IMG/VR virus record: IMGVR_UViG_3300037502_000757
Location: 1-28,634 of that record
Direction: 5' to 3' (one strand)
DNA: 28,634 nt
DNA from: a virus
Lineage: Duplodnaviria > Caudoviricetes
The translations under genes and the position numbers were made by a program. The notes beneath the pieces were generated by a model. That model made no database searches, was not told the origin of the DNA, and saw only the letters and a program-made list of their open reading frames with translations. Positions 510 through 21,621 of this stretch are shown in pieces (within the stretch, counting starts at the first letter, position 1; every line of letters starts with the position of its first letter).

Positions 510-837
510 CACAACCCTTGGCAGATTCTCTTAACCAAAAACAAATCGGCGGCTCTACCAACACTGCGGGGACTAGCCGCCTACCCTTACAACGTCCCGT
601 AGATACTGTAAACATCCCGTGCTTTTAAAGTGTAATAGAACCTCACCCGTAAAAAAACGGGTAGAACAAGGATGCTCTCGTTTATCTAGGCTGGTTTCAG
701 GTTTCCCTTCCACCCCGAGCAACTGGCCCCGTTCGCTTGCGCTACTGAAGTACCACCCGGTTTGCCACGTTTATCCGATTCGGTCGCATCTACCTCGTCG
801 AGGGCTGGGTTATGGCCCCGGCGGTTGCGACAAGCCA

Positions 838-942
838 ATAAAAAAACCCACTGGGCGACAGGCTTTAGGCTTGGTTTGCCGCATACAAGAGATGCACAAC
901 CATCTTCTTGCAGCTTTGACGAAGCCCGGCCCCCAGTGGGTT
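838..942 (-). ncRNA. C4-like antisense RNA ending in a U-tract
   Basis: Perfect 11-bp closing stem AACCCACUGGG (942-932)/CCCAGUGGGUU (855-845), followed by a U-run. Internal stems GGGCUU/AAGCCU and CAAGA/UCUUG. Single-stranded ACCAAGCC (875-868) is complementary to upstream GGCUUGGU (982-975). Layout resembles phage P1/P7 C4 and P4 CI RNAs. Confidence 0.65.
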
Positions 943-962
943 CGGATTCGCTGTTGTGAGCT

Positions 963-990
963 ACCCATCGGGTTACCAAGCCGATAGGTG
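963..990 (-). promoter_or_regulatory. Leader hairpin carrying the antisense target site (c4 a1b1-like)
   Basis: CCUAUCGG-CUUGGUAAC-CCGAUGGG hairpin just after the predicted TSS. It contains GGCUUGGU, the complement of ACCAAGCC in the downstream RNA. Confidence 0.55.
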
Positions 991-995
991 ATGAG

Positions 996-1024
996 AGTTT
1001 CCTACAACATTTTTAGTCTGTCAA
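996..1024 (-). promoter_or_regulatory. Sigma70-type promoter for the C4-like/replication transcript
   Basis: TTGACA (1024-1019), 17-nt spacer, GAAACT (1001-996). Predicted TSS near 989, at the start of the leader hairpin. Confidence 0.6.
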
Positions 1025-1341
1025 ATCCCCCTGCCAGAAGGCTTACAAGGCCATGTCGTCCGCAGCAGGTTCGTAATCAAGCTATCAGCCGAGAAGTGCC
1101 TGCTGCCGGGGTTTCTTGTCAGGTGACCCTTAACAAGGTCTCTGACCTGCCCTGTAGTGATATTAGCGGGGGGGCAATGAGTTACCCCATCTCCCGTGTC
1201 TGATACACCTACTACATATCCCAAGGCCATTGATCGATCCACGATGTGGTCTGATTCCATTTTGGCAAGAAGGTCATTGCCAGAATAGAACTCAGCCTGA
1301 GCAGTAGAACATACCAACAACAACGCTACAGCTATTCTCAT
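1021..1341 (-). CDS. Rap1a/Tai-family immunity-like secreted protein
   Basis: ATG at 1341 has RBS GGAGAGG. Signal peptide MRIAVALLLVCSTAQA, then F.SGNDLL..., GYVVGVSD, CPP..T.GQ..D.V, and a WPC C-terminus, all typical of Rap1a-family proteins. Confidence 0.75.
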   Translation of the reverse strand: MRIAVALLLVCSTAQAEFYSGNDLLAKMESDHIVDRSMALGYVVGVSDTGDGVTHCPPANITTGQVRDLVKGHLTRNPGSRHFSADSLITNLLRTTWPCKPSGRGI

Positions 1342-1358: not shown

Positions 1359-1477
1359 CCAACACGGCTGGGGGCTGGCATCCCTACACCGCCGAGACGC
1401 TGAGTCGAACAGCATCCCCACCTGTAGCCCCAGAGCGGCTTGTGCTAGGTTGCACAGCCAACCCCCATGCGTGTTGG
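1359..1477 (-). ncRNA. Structured RNA cassette 1 (119 nt) closed by the conserved stem
   Basis: CCAACACGCAUGGGGGUUGGC...GCCAGCCCCCAGCCGUGUUGG. The interior has three hairpins, one with a UUCGACU T-loop (1409-1403). Confidence 0.7.
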
Positions 1478-1498
1478 CCCCGTCTTTCCGGGGTGTCA
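1478..1498 (-). repeat. 21-nt hairpin repeat UGACACCCCGGAAAGACGGGG, copy A
   Basis: Identical to 1667-1687. CCCCG/CGGGG stem with GAAAGA loop. Confidence 0.85.
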
Positions 1499-1615
1499 GC
1501 GGGGCCAGATGTGTGCAGTCACGGTTCGTTGCACACCCACGGCCTAAAAGCCCTTTTTAAAGGCACTTAGGCTGAACCGCTAAGGTTTCCAGTTATTCCC
1601 CCGCCGGGGAAACTC

Positions 1616-1661
1616 CACGGGACACTTTCGTGTTTCGTCTCATCAAGACTCATCAGCCGTG
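1616..1661 (-). ncRNA. Type I hammerhead ribozyme
   Basis: Minus strand reads CACGG CUGAUGA GUCU-UGAUG-AGAC GAAA CAC-GAAA-GUG UC CCGUG. The CUGAUGA/GAAA/UH core is complete and stems I-III all pair. GUC cleavage triplet, with the cut predicted between 1621 and 1620. Confidence 0.92.
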
Positions 1662-1666
1662 CTAGT

Positions 1667-1687
1667 CCCCGTCTTTCCGGGGTGTCA
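1667..1687 (-). repeat. 21-nt hairpin repeat UGACACCCCGGAAAGACGGGG, copy B
   Basis: Identical to 1478-1498. Lies just 5' of the hammerhead. Confidence 0.85.
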
Positions 1688-1765
1688 TCTCAGGTCTATC
1701 CGCCCGGGGCTGAGTCACCCGTGGTATCGCACCGTAGCCACACGGATCCGGCTTGCTGGTCGTCA

Positions 1766-1914
1766 CCAACACGGCTGGGGACTGAGGCGGGATTCGAACC
1801 CTTACCGGACTCCTCTCGGCTAACCATAGCGCCTGTCCGTTTGCCTTCCGACTTTCAGCGAGCCTCCTGAAGTGCGGCTACACCCCCTCGCCTCTCAATC
1901 CCCATGCGTGTTGG
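1766..1914 (-). ncRNA. Structured RNA cassette 2 (149 nt) with a tRNA-like 3' half
   Basis: CCAACACGCAUGGGGAUUGAG...CUCAGUCCCCAGCCGUGUUGG. A GGG-UUCGAAU-CCC T-arm lies just before the closing stem. Confidence 0.7.
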
Positions 1915-2002
1915 TTGTCGGTGGCGCACTGGGTTCGGGGCTTATCGATTCCCTCCCAGTGCATTGACAATGAATACGGTACTCCGTCCATGCCCTGCCC
2001 CA

Positions 2003-2083
2003 CCAACACGGCTGGGGACTCTACGGACTTGCACCGCCATCCTAATGAGCCGCCCTATGCGGTCAAACCCCCATGCGTGTTGG
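2003..2083 (-). ncRNA. Structured RNA cassette 3 (81 nt)
   Basis: CCAACACGCAUGGGGGUU...AGUCCCCAGCCGUGUUGG. Interior has a CCGC/GCGG hairpin and a CGG-UGCAAGU-CCG T-loop-like hairpin. Confidence 0.7.
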
Positions 2084-2189
2084 TCCTGATCCCGCAGCTT
2101 CAACCAGTCAGGCCTAGTTCTAATAACGCACCAGCGGGTTAGCTTGTTGGTAATAACCGATTCTGACTACTGTCGATACCTCGACTTTC

Positions 2190-2267
2190 CCAACACGGCT
2201 GAGCACTCCTCTCCGGTTCGGATTTGCCGGATGGGCAAGTCAATGCCCGAATGCTCATGCGTCTTGG
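2190..2267 (-). ncRNA. Structured RNA cassette 4 (78 nt)
   Basis: CCAAGACGCAUGAGCAUUC...GAGUGCUCAGCCGUGUUGG, with a compensatory GGGG/CCCC to GAGC/GCUC change. Two internal hairpins, GGGCA/UGCCC and UCCGG/CCGGA. Confidence 0.7.
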
Positions 2268-2349
2268 TGGCCTGTGCGGGACTCGAACCCTCACGCCTAC
2301 CGGCAACAGATTTTAAGTCTGTCGTGTCTACCTATTCCACCAACAGGCC
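2265..2349 (-). tRNA. tRNA-Leu (anticodon UAA)
   Basis: Acceptor stem GGCCUGU/ACAGGCC, discriminator A and encoded CCA. D-arm GUGGAAUAGGUAGACAC, anticodon arm ACAGA-CUUAAAA-UCUGU, long variable arm, T-arm GAGGG-UUCGAGU-CCCGC (one mismatch). Confidence 0.93.
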
Positions 2350-2408
2350 AGATATTAGCATAACGATAGTGCGAACAATAGCTCATTGTATTTTTTAATC
2401 GACTCCTA

Positions 2409-2417
2409 TGTTATGAT
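2409..2417 (+). promoter_or_regulatory. Extended -10 promoter element (TG-T-TATGAT)
   Basis: TGn plus TATGAT (5/6 match to TATAAT) in an AT-rich intergenic stretch. Predicted TSS near 2424. Confidence 0.5.
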
Positions 2418-2422
2418 AGCTT

Positions 2423-2483
2423 TGTGCTTCGTAGCACACTTCCTCCTTCAGTCTTTTGGCCCCCGCGTGGGGCCATTTTTTTT
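2423..2483 (+). ncRNA. Candidate small RNA (~60 nt) with an anti-Shine-Dalgarno segment
   Basis: 5' hairpin UGUGC-UUCGUA-GCACA, unpaired CUUCCUCCUU (2439-2448), then an intrinsic terminator. Confidence 0.5.
2457..2483 (+). terminator. Rho-independent terminator
   Basis: TGGCCCC-CGCGT-GGGGCCA followed by T8. The U-tract exists only on the plus strand. Confidence 0.8.
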
Positions 2484-2490
2484 AAGCTTC

Positions 2491-5174: not shown

Positions 5175-5460
5175 GAAACTGAAACCTTTTATGTCCTACA
5201 TAGAAGAGTCTCAGTACGTAAAGATGAGCAGGCTGTCTAAGAAGACACACATCCCAATGTCTCAACTCATGAGGGAAGCTATCTCAATCAGGATCACAGA
5301 AGGCAATCCCTACACCGCCGGATTCAACAGCGGTTTAGAACATGCCATGAAGATTATTGATAACAACCAAGCTTCGCAAATGAGATTCCCGTCTGGAAAA
5401 TCTTTTGCAGAGTTGATCAACGAGGAAATTGAAAAGGCACGTATGAATGAAACTACTTAA
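5158..5460 (+). CDS. Ribbon-helix-helix DNA-binding protein
   Basis: N-terminal KPFMSYIEESQYVKMSRLSKKTHIPMSQLMREAI fits the RHH pattern. Confidence 0.65.
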   Translation: MPTSSKKLKPFMSYIEESQYVKMSRLSKKTHIPMSQLMREAISIRITEGNPYTAGFNSGLEHAMKIIDNNQASQMRFPSGKSFAELINEEIEKARMNETT

Positions 5461-14623: not shown

Positions 14624-14873
14624 GCTCACCCAGAAGCAACGCGCACACATCCAGCGGGTGAAAGAACTTCCCTGCTCGGTGTGTGACGCGCCACCACCGA
14701 GTGACGCCCACCACATCAAGCAGTCACTACAGTACTGCGTAGTAGCTCTTTGTAAGGACTGCCATCAGAACCCTGTTCTAGGGTTCCACGGGCAGAAAAG
14801 AATGTGGGCGATAAAGAAGATGGAAGAGCTAGACGCTCTCAACGTTACGATTGAGAGGCTATCTGCTTCTTGA
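14613..14873 (+). CDS. Ref-like / HNH-type Zn-finger nuclease
   Basis: H...VK.LPC.VC......DAHHI......ALC..CH......G.HG motif. Confidence 0.7.
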   Translation: MNNKLTQKQRAHIQRVKELPCSVCDAPPPSDAHHIKQSLQYCVVALCKDCHQNPVLGFHGQKRMWAIKKMEELDALNVTIERLSAS

Positions 14874-17800
14874 GCATCTGAATATTCTTGGTGAGTTGTT
14901 GTTCTAACTTACCGATATTCGAAAGAGTATCTCTCTTAGAATCCGCGTCCATATTAGAAATCCGGACAAGGTTCTTCATCTCCCGGTACTCTTTCATCGT
15001 CTTCTCAAGGTCGTTTATATAGTCCTTGACGGCTAGCATCTGTACGTTCTCTTGCATGTACTTGCCGTAGTTCTCAAAGTCCATCGACCGCTGTAAGAAG
15101 TTAGAAGTCCTGACTACCTCGTCTACACTATTCTTAAGATCGTAGTAGGCAGAGATCGCACCTCTAGCTTCCGGGTCTACCATGAACCGCTTTAACACCG
15201 GCATCTGCTCTAAGCGCCTAGAGGCTTTCGGAGCCTCTGAGTTCATGTCAAAGAACGAATCAAACAGGTTGACGGCGTACATCCCCATCGTTCCTGTGTA
15301 GCCCTGAATAAGGTAATCCAGCTTGATCGGGGAGATGTTAAGCGCCTGCCCAATAGCTCCTGCCACCTTAGACGTATTAGGTCCGACTTGGTACTCGGGA
15401 GAGATGTTCTCCATCCCCGGTGAGATAATCGGTCGCTGGGTGAAGAACGAGTAGTTAGTGGTCACTTCCACCGCCGGGAGGAAGGTCTGAGGAATAGGAT
15501 TAAAGGCAAAGGTAGACATGAACTGTCTACTCATCGACTTTAAGAAGTCCTTACCCGTATCAGATCCGAATGAGTACTCTAAGATCCGTTCAGGTATGAC
15601 TTTAAACATCACACCTATTTCAAAAGGGATCGGAATCTTTACCCCTGCCGAGGGGAAGAGCCAATAGTTATCCCGCGTCTCTTGTTCCTGAGCTTTGTAC
15701 TCTTCGTCGTCATGCGTTAATAACCAATACATGGATGAGAGAGCCATTAACATCATGCCTCTCACCCAGAAGGTGTTCATCCGCTTCTTCTCTGCCTCAG
15801 TAGCGTCACCGCTGATAGGCCTCATACCAGACCTATACAGAACATCCAGCCCCTGTATCCGGGCGTTCATAAACGGTACAGCAGCCGTCAGGATCCGGAT
15901 AATAGGTGACCTACCCTTCCGGTTGAAGTTCATGATCTCTAACGCTTGATAGAGAGCTTCTGCTTCGTTCCCGGTCTGTTCTAAGACCTTCTTATAGATC
16001 TCCTGCCTAGTTGCTGAGTCAGAGGCTTCAGATGACTTCTCCAGCGCACCCCAGAGGGTAGTCGCTGGAGAAGTGAGCTTCTCCATCGTCGTTCTAGCCT
16101 TAGCGGCTTTACGGATCTCAGCTTCCAGCTTCCGGGCGCTGGTCTCTACGCCTTGAGAGTAATCATACCCACCGATAACGCCAGCGCTTCTAAGTTCTCT
16201 CATCTCAGGAGACTTGTCAGCGATAGCTTTAGCGTACTGTTTTAACGTAGCTACGATAGGTGTGAACTTAAATCCAGACGCGACATAAGCGGATAACGAA
16301 TCCCGCATCATGTTAGCTAGCTGGAACGCCGGGTCTTTGGTGACGAGGTTTCGTAAGATACGAGCCGGGGCAGACAACAGACCAATAAACGGGATATCAG
16401 GTTGATAGAGAGACTTAAGAGACTCTATAAACATCGGGTCTCTAGCTTGGTAGTAGGTCTCTTTACCGTCCTCTAGAACCCGGTAAACCGTAGGCCCAGA
16501 CTGGGGGCGGTCTAGCTTAACAACCTCCCCGATCCGCATAGCCTGATCTGTAGCTCTACGGGCGGCTACGTTCTTAATCCCTGCCTGGATGGCAGACTGC
16601 GTATTCCTTACGATGGTCTCGAAGAAGTCTGTGACTTCTGACTCACTACCCTTGGCAGCTTTCGGTCCCTGTACGTTAGCGATAGACGTAAAGAGCCGTG
16701 GGCCTTGAATGTCATCCTCTCCTAGGTGCCTATAGAGAGGGAAGTAGTCTCCATGCTTCTTCATCTCCTTAGCACCGGCTTCACTTACCACGCCGGTATC
16801 TCGCATGAAATCTACTAAACCATTGTTATAGGCGATCCACTTCTTCTGGATCTCTACAAACTCAGGAAAGGCTTTCTCGATCTTTTCAGCACGCTTGATG
16901 TCGTCTTGCGTAAAGAGCTTCTCTTCGTACTTCCCTGTCCCGGGATTCAGGATGAACTTAGATGTACGTTTAACGTCTGCCCAGAACTGATACTGACTGT
17001 AAGCGTCAGGCTCGCCGAGTTTAGGTTTAGCGTAGGTAGCCAACTGCTGGAAGATCGGAAGAAGCCCTTCGGCTTTATCCATCACCTTGGTATAGCCTTG
17101 TTCGTAAACCTTAGCGCCGGGAACCTTTTTAGCGGCAGCGTCCGCAGCAGCTTTAGTGTTATGTGTACTAAGCTCTAAGAAGTCTTTCTCTACTACATAC
17201 TTCTTAACGTAGACAGGGATACCACCCTTTCTATCGTTAACACCCATAGCAGAAGCAGCTAGACCGCCACCGAGGTCAGCAAACAGCGCAGCAGATTCAG
17301 CTTTAGCATCTGCCAACTGTTCCTTCCCGCCCATCAGCTTTATCTGTTTAGCGGCTTCTCTATCGAACCTAGCAAGAGCGTCGTACCGGTTTATGAACTC
17401 TTTCCGGAACTTAGAGAACTGCTTGGGGGAGATAGCTTCTAAGGTTTTCTCGATATACCCAGCTTGATAACGCGGGACGATAGTAGCCTTAATGCGATCC
17501 GTTACGTCAGACGATAAGGTCGGGAGAGGGCGGAGGCTGAATCTGATATCACCAGCCTGCTGAGATTTAGAGGCTTCTTCTACAGTTAAACCAGCTTGCT
17601 CTGCCTCTTCCTTGGTTAAAGGACGAGAGCCAAACGTTCCAATGTTATAAATTGATTTAATTTGTTCTGGATAGAACGCGACTACTTCAACAATTGATCC
17701 TTCTGAATTACGTTTAACAATCCCGTCATACCCCTCCTGGCGCAACTTTGCGTTTTCTTTATCATTAATCTGGCCCAAATACGGACGGGTATAGGCGTCT

Positions 17801-20800
17801 GTGATTAAAGGATTTTGAATTGACAAATAAACTGGAACAACTTTTGCGCCTTCATCTTCGGCATATTCCGAAGCCATTTTAGCGTTGGGGGAAAAATAAG
17901 CCCCCGGGCCTAATGACAACCCGCGCCCAACACCTGCCATTGTGTCAAAAGTTACAAAATCGGAAGTTGTTCCGTGATATACAATTAACGGCTTTCCTTT
18001 TTTGTCAATAATTTTGCTTTCACGAAACCACTGTTTAAACTCTTCCGTTTTAGGCGAACGCAGGCTCGCCTTCTCTTCTGCCTTGGTGGGTTTAACCGGC
18101 GGGACAGGAAGCTCTCCCTTCTCAACAGCACCAAACACATCTTCGGCAGTGTCGTAACCGCCTACTTTCATAGCTTGTTTGATAGCTTTAAACAGGTTCT
18201 GCATCCTGTTCAGGATTGCCTTCATCATCCCGGCAGGAGGCGGAGCCTTTGTAAAATCAGCGAAGGCATCAGCAATAGACTCTTCTACGATAGCTTCCAT
18301 ATCACCATCGTAGAGCTGCATATAAGCGTCGTACCGGGTCATCTCTTTCCCGTCTACAACCGCCTTCTGGCCTTTTAGATATCGATCAATCCATTCTTTA
18401 TTTGCCCGGTCGGTCAAGACCTTCCACTGTTGGGGCGTAAAGAACCCTAGCTCTTTCAGAGCATGGATGGCTTCGTGACGTAACGTCCTGACGGGATTGT
18501 CTAGATCAAGAGCAAGCTTAATGAGCTGGCCGGAGTAAGAACCTTCATCGGCCATCCCTTCTTCTAGGTTTACTTTGACATCCTTTAAACCATACTTGGC
18601 GAGGATCTTATTAAGTACACCTTGAAGCTGGTCGATCTTCTCTTGTAGTTCAGGAGCGCGTACCTTCTCTTCTGGCGGTTTGGCTTCTGACGGCTTAGCT
18701 GCTTTAGCTTCTAGCTCTTTGAACTTAGCCTCTGAGACCTGCGGGGCTACTTGAGCGAGGCTTTTCTTAACGGGCTTTTTCTTAACCTCTTTGGCAGGGG
18801 TAAGTTGATCGTAAACCGTCAGAACTTCTAATAACGCTGTGCTGTTCTTAATCCCTAGCAGGTCAGCGATAGTCTGAACAAACTTAGACCATGCGGATTG
18901 TTTCTCGTAAGGGATAGTGTTTAAGAAGAACTGGAAGCTAGGATTGCCTAATCCTTCAGCGATGAATTCTTGAATCCCGGTAACGCCGTAAAACTCAAGA
19001 TCTTTCTCTTCCGCGATCTTCTTAACGTCTTCGAACAACTTTTGTAAACGTTTGACGTGCGGAGCCTGAGCCTTTGTAGGATTGGCTACTGCTTCATATA
19101 CCTGCGCGTGTACAACCTCATGAGCGACAACGCCTTCGTCTTTGGCGAAGTAATTAGTTACCTTGATTTTTTTAGATTTGGGGTCGTAAGACCCCCCGGG
19201 CACGCCAACTGTCAAAATGACAGCAGACGCATTGTTCTTGATAACATCTTCACCTATACGGTCAAATTCAGCATCAACCTTTTGTTTGATTTCTTTTAAT
19301 TGCTGAGCTTCGGTTTGATAAGAGCGTACGTATAAATCTTTTAGATTTAAAGCTAACCATACTGAAATGTCTCGTGGTTCAGTTTCCTGTACCTCTACAA
19401 TCTTATTGTTTACTTCTTTAAAAGTGAAAGGTTTAAACTCGACCCCGTTGTCCAGCGAATCTCGTAAAGCAAGAAGATTTTTGGCGTAATTACTGCGCCA
19501 CTGGTCTAAAAACAAATCTCTACCAAGGTAGCTTTCGCCTGCCTCTGGGTTGATCTCAACAGAAACCCCGGCAGGAACACCTTTTCTGCCTACTTCAGCA
19601 ACGATGGGGTTCTTACTACGAGATAAAGCATTGGTAATGCCGGTGACGTTACCTGCCTTAGCAGAAGCCAATAGCTGAGGGTTGTCCCGGCGAGCCCTTA
19701 AGTTCTCACCACGAACCGCGCCAATCTTCTCTGCAAATTCTTGTTTGGCCTTACGCTCTTCTTGTAAAGCTTTGATCTCCGCCTTGCGCTCTTCCGTTAG
19801 TGGAGCGGGTTTTGTTTTCGTTGTTGATACAAGTTGCTCAGCAGGTTCTGTAACAGGAGCCACTCCACCTCGCTCAGATGGAGCAAGTCCCTCGGCGGGG
19901 GGCTGTTCTCCAGCCCGTCGTCCAGCCACTGCAACGCCTTCTCCACTTGGTTGAGGGTAAGTTCGTTGAGCATAGAATCCACTCCCCGGTCGGCTTTCAA
20001 GGTAACGATCAATACTATCTAATACACCTTCTAACTTGTCATACAAGTCTGGCGTAGCCCTTTTTTGAGCAGCTTCTAGAGTCTTGACAACAAAGTCTGC
20101 CTCGTCTGGATTGTTAAGATCCTTATCCTTAACCTGATCATAGACAGGATCAGTTCTAGGAATCCCCGCCGCCCGTAAATCCGTCGCCCGGAGAGTAAAA
20201 GCTTCCGGCAGGTCAAACCCTCTACTTTTGGCTTCTTCCTGTAACAGGTTATAGAGCGTCCTAGCCTGCTCAACGCTCTGATCTCTTTCAGGACTCTCAG
20301 GATCTTTCTTGGTCTTAGAGATGTACTCTAATAACGACACAAGCTGGTCTTTCGGAGTTTCTTTCGTATTTACAAGGTCAATCAACCCAGTGCCGGTGAG
20401 GTACGTAGGCTTCTCCGGCTCTTCTGCAAAAGGATAAGGTTTATCAGTAGGAGTCTGACGGGCTTCTGCCTCGCTCACGACTCTCTTACGGAGTTCTATA
20501 GCGGCTTCTAACGACGCCTGCTTCTCAGGACTATCCGGCTCTTGTTTGATTCGTTCGGCGTACTGTACGAGCTTCCCATACCCGTTCTCTTCTGCTGCCA
20601 TAGAGGCGAGTTCAGAACTGGATAGAAACGGACTCTTCTCCGGCTGAGCCGTCATCTGTTTGATGTCAAAGTTCAGACGTTGAGCGGTCTGTTCCAATGA
20701 CTCCCCCGGACGTTGGCCGGGAGCTAACGGTTCTTCTACCTGCTTCTGTCTTTCAATATACCTACCAACAGGAGCTAACGTCCCACCCAGTACAGCACCA

Positions 20801-21621
20801 CCGATAAAGCTGTCTAAGTACTCCGCCCGGGCGGAAGGATCAGCTATGTTTAACCCAGCCTGTAGGCGTTCTAAGAACGACTGACCAGACTCTGTAAGAC
20901 CTTCTACGCCTGCGGTCTTGCCGGTAGTGACGGCGTAGTCTTTAATAGTGTTAGTGATACCTTGCTTAGCAAGGTTCTGAGCAGCTTCCTCTGTAATTTC
21001 TTTCCCGACAGAGGTAAAGAGTTGCCTAATAAGAGGTACGGCTCTAAAGGCGATTACGTCTAACGCAGCTTGAGGGACGGCAGCAGCAGCGGCAGCACCA
21101 AAGCTAGCTTCGTCTAGAGATTTGCCTGTCTCTAGCTGTCTAGCTAAGTTTGACCCGGTAAACTGGGCAGCAGATGTAAGGCCAGCCGCTCCCAGACCAG
21201 CAGCGACCGCAGCAGTACCAGTAAGGGGCGCAACAGCGGCAGCACCAGCAGCAGCCAGTGGCGCAGCCATATACGGCAGAGAACCGCCTAAAAGTTCTGT
21301 GAACTTAGTAAACGCCCCGTCAGACCATTTATCGGTAGGAGTGAAGATCCGTCTAGCTTCTGCTTCCCGGGCCTCAAACTTCTTCTGAGCTTCCTCGGGA
21401 GAAAGAATACCAAGCTTCCCTCCTAAGAGGGCAGCTTCACCTAGCAATGATTGCGTAGAGGCTTTAACCGCCGGGAGGAAGCCAGACTCACCTTTCGGCG
21501 CTTCCAGCCCCATTTTTACAACATCGTACCCGCCAGCCTTCAGACGGTTAATGATCTCAGTCTGAGTCGTGCCTTCAGGGACATTGTTTAATACGGTGCC
21601 ATCCGGCAGACGAACATCCAT
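14845..21621 (-). CDS. Large polyvalent virion/ejection protein (two zincin HExxH domains, ART-like domain, C-terminal LPD38-like region)
   Basis: 2258 aa. N-terminal V.LPDG....VP.G motif and Ala/Gly-rich hydrophobic segments; AHEVVHA...EFIAEG; RHEAIHA...EESIADAF; FKQWF..SK..D..GKPL.VYHGT...G.YF...YA...PVYL.I.NP...GYDGI...VAF.P.QIKS; C-terminal PF.NA..QG, IP.PFE.G..FK and SP..LDY...GY.G motifs. Confidence 0.85.
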   Translation of the reverse strand: MDVRLPDGTVLNNVPEGTTQTEIINRLKAGGYDVVKMGLEAPKGESGFLPAVKASTQSLLGEAALLGGKLGILSPEEAQKKFEAREAEARRIFTPTDKWSDGAFTKFTELLGGSLPYMAAPLAAAGAAAVAPLTGTAAVAAGLGAAGLTSAAQFTGSNLARQLETGKSLDEASFGAAAAAAVPQAALDVIAFRAVPLIRQLFTSVGKEITEEAAQNLAKQGITNTIKDYAVTTGKTAGVEGLTESGQSFLERLQAGLNIADPSARAEYLDSFIGGAVLGGTLAPVGRYIERQKQVEEPLAPGQRPGESLEQTAQRLNFDIKQMTAQPEKSPFLSSSELASMAAEENGYGKLVQYAERIKQEPDSPEKQASLEAAIELRKRVVSEAEARQTPTDKPYPFAEEPEKPTYLTGTGLIDLVNTKETPKDQLVSLLEYISKTKKDPESPERDQSVEQARTLYNLLQEEAKSRGFDLPEAFTLRATDLRAAGIPRTDPVYDQVKDKDLNNPDEADFVVKTLEAAQKRATPDLYDKLEGVLDSIDRYLESRPGSGFYAQRTYPQPSGEGVAVAGRRAGEQPPAEGLAPSERGGVAPVTEPAEQLVSTTKTKPAPLTEERKAEIKALQEERKAKQEFAEKIGAVRGENLRARRDNPQLLASAKAGNVTGITNALSRSKNPIVAEVGRKGVPAGVSVEINPEAGESYLGRDLFLDQWRSNYAKNLLALRDSLDNGVEFKPFTFKEVNNKIVEVQETEPRDISVWLALNLKDLYVRSYQTEAQQLKEIKQKVDAEFDRIGEDVIKNNASAVILTVGVPGGSYDPKSKKIKVTNYFAKDEGVVAHEVVHAQVYEAVANPTKAQAPHVKRLQKLFEDVKKIAEEKDLEFYGVTGIQEFIAEGLGNPSFQFFLNTIPYEKQSAWSKFVQTIADLLGIKNSTALLEVLTVYDQLTPAKEVKKKPVKKSLAQVAPQVSEAKFKELEAKAAKPSEAKPPEEKVRAPELQEKIDQLQGVLNKILAKYGLKDVKVNLEEGMADEGSYSGQLIKLALDLDNPVRTLRHEAIHALKELGFFTPQQWKVLTDRANKEWIDRYLKGQKAVVDGKEMTRYDAYMQLYDGDMEAIVEESIADAFADFTKAPPPAGMMKAILNRMQNLFKAIKQAMKVGGYDTAEDVFGAVEKGELPVPPVKPTKAEEKASLRSPKTEEFKQWFRESKIIDKKGKPLIVYHGTTSDFVTFDTMAGVGRGLSLGPGAYFSPNAKMASEYAEDEGAKVVPVYLSIQNPLITDAYTRPYLGQINDKENAKLRQEGYDGIVKRNSEGSIVEVVAFYPEQIKSIYNIGTFGSRPLTKEEAEQAGLTVEEASKSQQAGDIRFSLRPLPTLSSDVTDRIKATIVPRYQAGYIEKTLEAISPKQFSKFRKEFINRYDALARFDREAAKQIKLMGGKEQLADAKAESAALFADLGGGLAASAMGVNDRKGGIPVYVKKYVVEKDFLELSTHNTKAAADAAAKKVPGAKVYEQGYTKVMDKAEGLLPIFQQLATYAKPKLGEPDAYSQYQFWADVKRTSKFILNPGTGKYEEKLFTQDDIKRAEKIEKAFPEFVEIQKKWIAYNNGLVDFMRDTGVVSEAGAKEMKKHGDYFPLYRHLGEDDIQGPRLFTSIANVQGPKAAKGSESEVTDFFETIVRNTQSAIQAGIKNVAARRATDQAMRIGEVVKLDRPQSGPTVYRVLEDGKETYYQARDPMFIESLKSLYQPDIPFIGLLSAPARILRNLVTKDPAFQLANMMRDSLSAYVASGFKFTPIVATLKQYAKAIADKSPEMRELRSAGVIGGYDYSQGVETSARKLEAEIRKAAKARTTMEKLTSPATTLWGALEKSSEASDSATRQEIYKKVLEQTGNEAEALYQALEIMNFNRKGRSPIIRILTAAVPFMNARIQGLDVLYRSGMRPISGDATEAEKKRMNTFWVRGMMLMALSSMYWLLTHDDEEYKAQEQETRDNYWLFPSAGVKIPIPFEIGVMFKVIPERILEYSFGSDTGKDFLKSMSRQFMSTFAFNPIPQTFLPAVEVTTNYSFFTQRPIISPGMENISPEYQVGPNTSKVAGAIGQALNISPIKLDYLIQGYTGTMGMYAVNLFDSFFDMNSEAPKASRRLEQMPVLKRFMVDPEARGAISAYYDLKNSVDEVVRTSNFLQRSMDFENYGKYMQENVQMLAVKDYINDLEKTMKEYREMKNLVRISNMDADSKRDTLSNIGKLEQQLTKNIQMLKKQIASQS
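19797..19973 (-). CDS. Probable overprinted nested gene (58 aa) in an alternative frame of the polyvalent gene
   Basis: MLNELTLNQVEKALQWLDDGLENSPPPRDLLHLSEVEWLLLQNLLSNLYQQRKQNPLH. RBS GGGGAG 8 nt upstream. Lies over a low-complexity linker of the host gene. Confidence 0.55.
   Translation of the reverse strand: MLNELTLNQVEKALQWLDDGLENSPPPRDLLHLSEVEWLLLQNLLSNLYQQRKQNPLH

Follow-up and report, generated by a model that had tools for sequence, protein, structure and literature searches.

Within a 28,634-nucleotide phage contig, referred to below as the window and meaning the whole stretch analysed, we find a minus-strand array in which a repeated stem encloses a succession of small structured RNAs. 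The pairs that the stem conserves make it likely, as a prediction, to be a processing signal for host RNase III, and we consider it probable that the stem directs the cutting of one minus-strand transcript and that its arms mark where the enclosed cargoes differ, likely by way of recombination. Such a processing signal is known in kind; what is new is the sequence variant, 138 families of cargo and a layout in which two clamps alternate. The stem is accordingly better described as a sequence variant of a known RNase III signal than as a novel type of site. In the literature covered, with subscription journals largely outside its scope, we found no description of such arrays and motif strings gave nothing relevant. 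The available tables of Fremin 2023 (PMC10690425) gave no match and appear to hold no sequences, and single cargoes may be among the candidates in the alignments of that study and of Weinberg 2017 (PMC5737381).

Architecture of the array and distribution of its stem

The window, 28.6 kb of a larger genome, carries genes for an annealing protein of the Sak type, for an exonuclease and for a large polyvalent protein, and the sequencing runs containing it are freshwater and subsurface metagenomes. The array sits between a tRNA-Leu(TAA) gene (2265..2349, minus strand; ARAGORN, Rfam 55.1 bits), whose CCA supplies the first three bases of unit 4, and a Rap1a-domain gene directly downstream (1021..1341, minus strand; Pfam PF18602, E 1.5e-17). 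A possible but weak sigma-70 promoter for the array (2385..2414, minus strand) matches at 9 of 12 positions, in a promoter scan that gave 2 sites against 1.1 expected and was therefore not above chance. Seven short overlapping ORFs in the array region had no Pfam match at E<=0.1, in agreement with the earlier statement that this kilobase holds no credible coding sequence. Other features of the window include a divergent small-RNA candidate (2417-2490, plus strand) that contains CUUCCUCCUU, resembling an anti-Shine-Dalgarno sequence, as well as an intrinsic terminator at 2457-2475, matches Rfam suhB/mmgR weakly (31.4 bits) and is largely kept in three related loci (L138-L140); a second non-coding region that lies downstream of the Rap1a-like gene and contains inverted repeats (about 560-1010, minus strand), kept in L138 and L139 and replaced in L140; and a 2258-aa polyvalent protein with ART-PolyVal and LPD38 domains (14845-21621, minus strand). 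Weak anti-hemB matches were also seen opposite and upstream of the arrays in L144 and L250.

The earlier note had described four units, numbered here 1 to 4 (1359-1477, 1766-1914, 2003-2083 and 2190-2267, all minus strand), and both their coordinates and their lengths are correct. Its account of their architecture also holds, the minus-strand fold of each consisting of a terminal helix, a 2x2 CA/GC loop and an inner helix of 9-11 bp. The UGGGG/CCCCA motif said to occur in each unit is present in units 1-3 only, as unit 4 reads CCAAGACG-CA-UGAGC...GCUCA-GC-CGUGUUGG, with a G.G mismatch and not GGGG/CCCC. The 5' arm has four matches at 0-1 mismatch and the 3' arm four exact matches, all inside 1359-2267; with up to 2 mismatches there are 9 matches per arm where about 2 are expected, a number reached in 0 of 100 shuffles. 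Assignment to the minus strand, likewise claimed before, agrees with the folding energies (lower on that strand in 4/4 units), with the U.G pair and with the strand of the tRNA but is opposed by the z-scores of units 2 and 3, which favour the plus strand. Because the z-scores conflict, our strand call rests on the U.G pair, found in 206 of 253 copies of the stem, and on the 9/9 ARAGORN tRNAs that are co-stranded with their arrays. In the minimum-energy fold of the whole array the unit-3 clamp, the tRNA and stem I of the hammerhead described below do not form.

A search of phage metagenomes for the stem had been proposed in the earlier note and yielded 253 distinct copies. A two-arm pattern identified at least 120 viral loci (about 430 estimated), to which longer spacing adds 80, while a relaxed finder applied to 345 sequences identified 255 distinct units, distributed over 216 loci, and none in 263 kb of shuffled sequence; we discarded two units that had been called in reverse orientation, which gave the copies analysed. 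These counts come from part of one sequence collection only and the copies lie mostly in viral contigs. The inner helix is present in all 200 viral pattern loci listed as against 8 of 17 matches from the genome collection, where the 9 without it are chance matches that served as controls. The 8 true units lie on contigs that are mostly short, in bins whose labels are mixed (three Burkholderiales, Sterolibacterium, Halothiobacillus and three others), and among cultured phages none was found with exactly the window's stem.

The inner helix had been said to covary, and this is borne out at five positions that lie outside the search pattern: they are paired in 144, 145, 141, 140 and 138 of 145 cases, all above the maxima from 1000 column shuffles (133, 127, 130, 133 and 125). 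As column shuffles ignore relatedness, pair types were also counted per cargo family, giving alternative pairs at +5 (A-U in 37 families, G.U in 20) and +6 (C-G in 13). The lower stem, the loop and the two proximal-box pairs are fixed by the search pattern, the distal-box pairs are not. In 44 copies outside the pattern the proximal-box pairs recur in 43 and 42, yet these copies were found by their likeness to the consensus; lower-stem compensation is seen there as CATCACG/CGTGATG and TAATACG/CGTATTA.

A predicted RNase III register and its relatives

We scored the stem against the E. coli RNase III consensus given in PMC4357697 and obtained 0.68 in one of nine registers and 0.16-0.40 in the others. 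The fitting register, CAACACG^CAUG / AGCCG^UGUUG, places the cuts two bases outside the CA/GC loop. Over 253 copies it puts G-C (251) and U-A (252) in the proximal box and U.G (206) and U-A (241) in the distal box, the pairs that PMC1540722 names optimal for RNase III. Between the cuts lie two G-C/C-G pairs, present in 252/253 and 251/253 copies, which is the preference recorded in vivo at cleaved stems in PMC6212723. In size, too, the stem is that of an RNase III substrate, with a lower stem of 7-9 bp, the 2x2 loop and an upper stem of 9 bp, and the recognition half extends from the cut as far as the G-C at +11, a length of 11 positions. The fit has blemishes: box positions 3 and 4 are unpaired (C.C and A.G mismatches in 241/253 and 247/253), position +7 is G-C instead of the consensus C-G in 220/253, and no register brings the lower half into agreement with the consensus (0.33), although A-U pairs do occupy its box-2 and box-4 positions. 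According to PMC1540722 one consensus-fitting half suffices, and with so poor a lower half cleavage might be confined to one strand. We considered cuts at the CA/GC loop itself and rejected them, that register scoring 0.40 and placing inhibitory G-C pairs in the boxes.

A relative of the stem lies upstream of dicF in the E. coli K-12 prophage Qin, where the same register gives 1649182 and 1649251 as first bases after the cuts. RNase III sites mapped in vivo upstream of dicF are listed at 1649182 and 1649251 in the supplement of PMC6212723, so the register coincides with both mapped cuts and a homologous stem is cut in vivo in the same register. The long DicF species is rnc-dependent according to bioRxiv 10.1101/2023.04.14.536235. 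Like the window's units, the Qin relative consists of a long stem enclosing a structured insert, lies in the non-coding leader of a prophage and is followed by further small RNAs; it has the same CG^ and CCG^ at the cuts, and its arms are identical to those of the window at 12/19 and 8/13 bases by hand count. It differs in having one mismatch beside the cut where the window has the C.C/A.G loop, and in being a single stem described as one processing site and not as a swap array or a family. A second mapped Qin RNase III pair (1649454, 1649584; L471:1150-1290) surrounds a module similar by eye to the STnc100-like one of P1 described below. RNase III-type processing, as first suggested from the sequence, thus gains from the consensus fit and the mapped Qin relative, with the cuts moved to two bases outside the CA/GC loop.

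A sister stem occurs in enterobacterial phages, reading ACAACAGG^UAAGAGCAUU...AGUGCUCUUUCC^GUUGU and aligning with the window's 5' arm without gaps. It is found in P1 (right after tRNA-Thr), the lambda late leader, many prophages, Klebsiella and Enterobacter phages and about 400 viral stretches, and fits the E. coli RNase III consensus at 0.85. Daniels et al. reportedly described the lambda late RNase III sites in 1988. The sister stem has a bulged A in its lower stem and U.U or U-A and A-U in place of the 2x2 loop; it encloses variable cargo (47 families in 90 units) that includes the hammerhead module of the window, the only cargo shared with the freshwater stem at BLAST level. It is followed by the same downstream module, B1, in 28/90 units as compared with 23/253 for the freshwater stem. 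The P1 stretch is matched in part by 1402 of 5426 complete E. coli genomes, or about a quarter. In the Pseudomonas phages AH02 and PS-1 (L528:300-400, L529:310-410) a third stem sequence surrounds a variable insert before B1, which suggests host-group versions of one socket. The likeness between the window's stem and the enterobacterial one could partly be convergence on RNase III preference. Beside sister-stem arrays of Klebsiella phages we also noted tmRNA-like pieces with a tag-like short frame (L348:596-758, L349:650-720, L385:1256-1391) and weak Rfam tmRNA matches.

In T7 the stems are closed by short loops and act as mRNA punctuation, whereas stems of the window's type enclose 23-113 nt of folded, exchangeable RNA. 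Signals of the T7 R1.1 type (PMC1540722) share with them the proximal and distal box pairs, an 11-bp recognition helix and an internal loop at the cut.

It is improbable, though the sequence offers some grounds for it, that the stem is bound by RNase III or another protein that binds double-stranded RNA and left uncut or nicked once, acting as a protective or insulating clamp while RNase P, RNase E or a hammerhead releases the RNAs at a second type of clamp. The 2x2 loop lies at proximal-box positions beside the cut and internal loops can limit cleavage to one bond (PMC1540722), but in vivo both strands of the Qin relative are cut, and the G-C between the cuts together with A-U at both box-2 positions matches cleaved sites.

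With RNase III cleavage as the preferred reading, one long minus-strand transcript would span the array and the enzyme would bind the cargo-side helix through its proximal and distal box pairs, cutting on both sides in the register above. The first base after each predicted cut would be 2259 and 2195 in unit 4 (64-nt product), 2075 and 2008 in unit 3 (67 nt), 1906 and 1771 in unit 2 (135 nt) and 1469 and 1364 in unit 1 (105 nt), so that each released cargo of 64-135 nt would carry a closing stem of 11 bp and a 3' overhang of 2 nt. Cleavage would also free the spacer modules, leave the tRNA-Leu with a 5-nt trailer, presumably then trimmed, and give the downstream mRNA a new 5' end.

Cargo RNAs, spacers and a second clamp

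The cargoes fall into about 138 BLAST families, 87 of them singletons, in a clustering that may split distant relatives. All four window cargoes recur elsewhere. The two-hairpin cargo of unit 4 belongs to a family also seen in L045, L077, L078 and L198, and the multi-hairpin cargo of unit 2, which ends in a GGUUCGAAUCC T-loop, has two homologues (L523, L526) with little variation. Unit 1 combines a T-loop hairpin with a loop-to-tail pseudoknot whose covariation is perfect (CCAA/UUGG in 11 and CCUA/UAGG in 4 of 15), 6 of the 25 pairs of this cargo having two-sided changes. The unit-3 cargo carries GGCUCAU and a T-arm as in tRNA-Met(CAT) genes, and its anticodon stem is broken; five of the six other matches to its pattern are ARAGORN tRNA-Met(CAT) genes. 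The broken anticodon stem and the tRNA-Met features together suggest a tRNA-derived mimic. T-loop hairpins occur in 9/138 cargo families against 0.6 expected. Scored by themselves, with pseudoknots excluded, cargo interiors fold modestly better than shuffles (median z -0.56, with 16/138 below -2). In L073:1921-2033 and L176:1317-1428 we observed tRNA-like RNAs whose D-loop region is enlarged by an insertion of 46-48 nt.

In the Rfam comparison that had been proposed as a check, only tRNA was at or above gathering, in the window and in 40 freshwater loci, and no family matched clamp or cargo at that level. Resemblances to Twister-sister and Y RNA (YrlA) had no Rfam match at E<=10, and those to C4 and skipping-rope RNAs had no Rfam support. 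A tRNA gene array is rejected, the window having one tRNA, the unit-3 cargo no anticodon stem and ARAGORN finding none in L515. A CRISPR array is rejected as the arms are paired inverted elements and not direct repeats, and so is a CRISPR-repeat mimic (DR58-like, 1585-1614; 19.9 bits, E 1.2), the segment being part of a covarying pseudoknot. When antisense targets were sought in the phage's own DNA, four of five segments stayed at shuffle level. Within a ribbon-helix-helix gene, 15 nt at 5306-5320 are exactly complementary to the 3' part of the unit-1 cargo (shuffle maximum 13), a match that is probably due to chance, the cargo segment being structural.

The spacers between units are recurring modules too, a point that the earlier note had missed along with the hairpin repeat and the hammerhead described next. 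The spacer at 2084..2189 (minus strand, as are all spacer features here) has no significant fold by itself (z -0.14), and in L149 another cargo precedes its first part. That at 1917..2007 folds with a z of -2.45 and is closed by a second, acceptor-like clamp, GUUGGUG...CACCGAC, which we call B type; it shares bases with the 3' arm of unit 3. The spacer at 1688..1765 follows the unit-3 cargo, not the unit-2 cargo, in L149. A repeat search located a 21-nt hairpin repeat at 1667..1687, 5' of the hammerhead, and at 1478..1498, 5' of unit 1, and its motif is present in about 370 viral stretches.

Between these two copies lies a type I hammerhead ribozyme (1616..1661, minus strand) with the core CUGAUGA/GAAA/UC and predicted self-cleavage between 1621 and 1620. 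The match to Rfam RF00163 spans 1615-1662 and scores 19.9 bits, below the gathering score of 34. The core (CUGANGA, GAAA, NUH) is intact in 18/20 distinct homologues and stems I-III all covary among them. The window copy thus shares the complete core and the stems of RF00163 and differs by heading an uncatalogued pseudoknotted RNA (1499..1620, minus strand), recognised from its homologues and their covarying long-range pairs, 19/40 pairs of the hammerhead module having two-sided changes. This RNA also occurs inside the enterobacterial sister clamp of other phages. By prediction the hammerhead module would self-cleave, and one module of the array would then be released in this way instead of by RNase III.

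A second clamp of 7 bp, GUUGGUG...CACCAAC, follows 156/249 units where 21 are expected, with A as the next base in 124/156. In L077 a stem of this type is the acceptor stem of a real tRNA, and the unit-1 cargo is found in either clamp type, the RNase III-type stem or the B clamp. That so many units are followed by a stem used by real tRNAs speaks for release at B clamps with the repeated stem bound but uncut; against it, the T-loop motif is present in only 14/156 B modules. We continue to prefer cleavage by RNase III at the repeated stem. The B1 module, found at L147:966-1100 and 23 other loci and in P1 (L347:930-1062), has fixed head and tail hairpins around a variable insert and is closed by an acceptor-like stem; the loops of the two hairpins are complementary, a possible kissing loop. 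It is matched in part in 215 cultured phage records and by no Rfam family. STnc100 (RF02076) weakly matches the module after the P1 sister stem (33.9 bits against a gathering score of 47) and matched none of the window or freshwater modules scanned; bioRxiv 10.64898/2026.05.13.724894 relates STnc100 to PasD, which has base-pairing targets.

Exchange of modules and the role of the array

The array is optional in this phage group, close relatives being without it. In L138-L140, which may represent one population, sequence upstream is 88% identical, the tRNA-Leu(TAA) sequence is identical and the tRNA is followed immediately by the Rap1a-like gene. In contigs from other runs the flanks are retained and the cargo changes at the inner edge of the arms: in X7 50 nt are replaced by 110 and in X9 and X11 111 nt are replaced by 49, although many of the swap joints have a short side, several of them with <30 bases, and may derive from other phages. 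In some contigs the segment between the 21-nt repeats is deleted, and in X3 407 nt between two 3' arms are missing, the short side being 29 bases, where the query stretch ended. Contigs of other runs have different cargoes in the unit-2 socket, the unit-3 cargo and two of the window's spacers recur in L149 in changed order, and downstream modules are unrelated in 48/51 multi-member cargo families. A comparison of cargo number and order in relatives, proposed earlier, thus reveals absence, swaps and reordering, and the suggestion that the arms serve as exchange boundaries is supported by the array-free relatives, the cargo swaps and the deletions at arms. Exchange would proceed by recombination through the 15-21-nt arms, for which the Sak-like annealing protein and the exonuclease are candidates.

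These same swaps and deletions at the arms, the empty site and the encoded annealing protein and exonuclease would also suit arms that are cassette boundaries at the level of DNA (integron-, REPIN- or PeSL-like), with pairing that matters in single-stranded DNA and not in RNA. We regard this as very improbable, since the cargoes include a hammerhead, tRNA-like T-loops at well above the expected number and RNA pseudoknots, and the conserved pairs are RNase III determinants. Nor did the scan of 23 window proteins and 33 neighbour clusters reveal an integrase, a transposase or a reverse transcriptase, the 28.6-kb contig being a partial genome; the array cassettes hold no ORFs.

The array had been described as tRNA-headed, a description that does not extend to the family: only 9/81 loci with long flanks have a tRNA, mostly downstream, and the tRNA head is for this reason incidental. 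The commonest array neighbours are terminase subunits on the same strand, upstream or downstream (39/156 and 31/156 loci), and no partner protein recurs among the neighbours scanned. The placement beside terminase genes, the survival of relatives without the array and the many singleton families would fit stems that are ordinary leader punctuation, maturing tRNAs and tuning the downstream mRNA around neutral or selfish cargoes with no effect on the host. We hold this to be unlikely, although not negligibly so: 72/81 loci have no tRNA to mature, and recurring cargoes such as that of unit 1 and the hammerhead module keep complex covarying folds across unrelated contexts.

On our preferred reading, of RNA cargoes released by RNase III, the cargoes would act on the host, which is the weakest step of the mechanism. 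Their role is most likely that of host-directed trans-acting RNAs, with tRNA-like decoys or protein-binding folds as the leading form, if short of an even chance, base-pairing small RNAs as a lesser prospect and mixed or selfish passengers as the rest. More broadly, and as a tentative proposal that we think somewhat doubtful, tailed phages of Proteobacteria may share a host-tuned RNase III socket into which hundreds of unrelated folded RNAs, such as tRNA mimics, pseudoknots and RNAs capped by ribozymes, are recombined, an RNA counterpart of anti-defence islands whose cargoes would be decoys or sponges against immunity.

As a tag the stem delimits about 138 families of small structured RNAs from phages, with ends predicted to the base, and this tag turns the function of phage intergenic RNAs into a testable panel. 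Because P1, lambda and roughly one in four complete E. coli genomes have the sister stem, processing can be tested at once in laboratory strains. If the cargoes counter host defences they would form a class of RNA-only accessory genes; if they do not, the array would still offer a portable cassette for releasing RNAs, as well as new folds.
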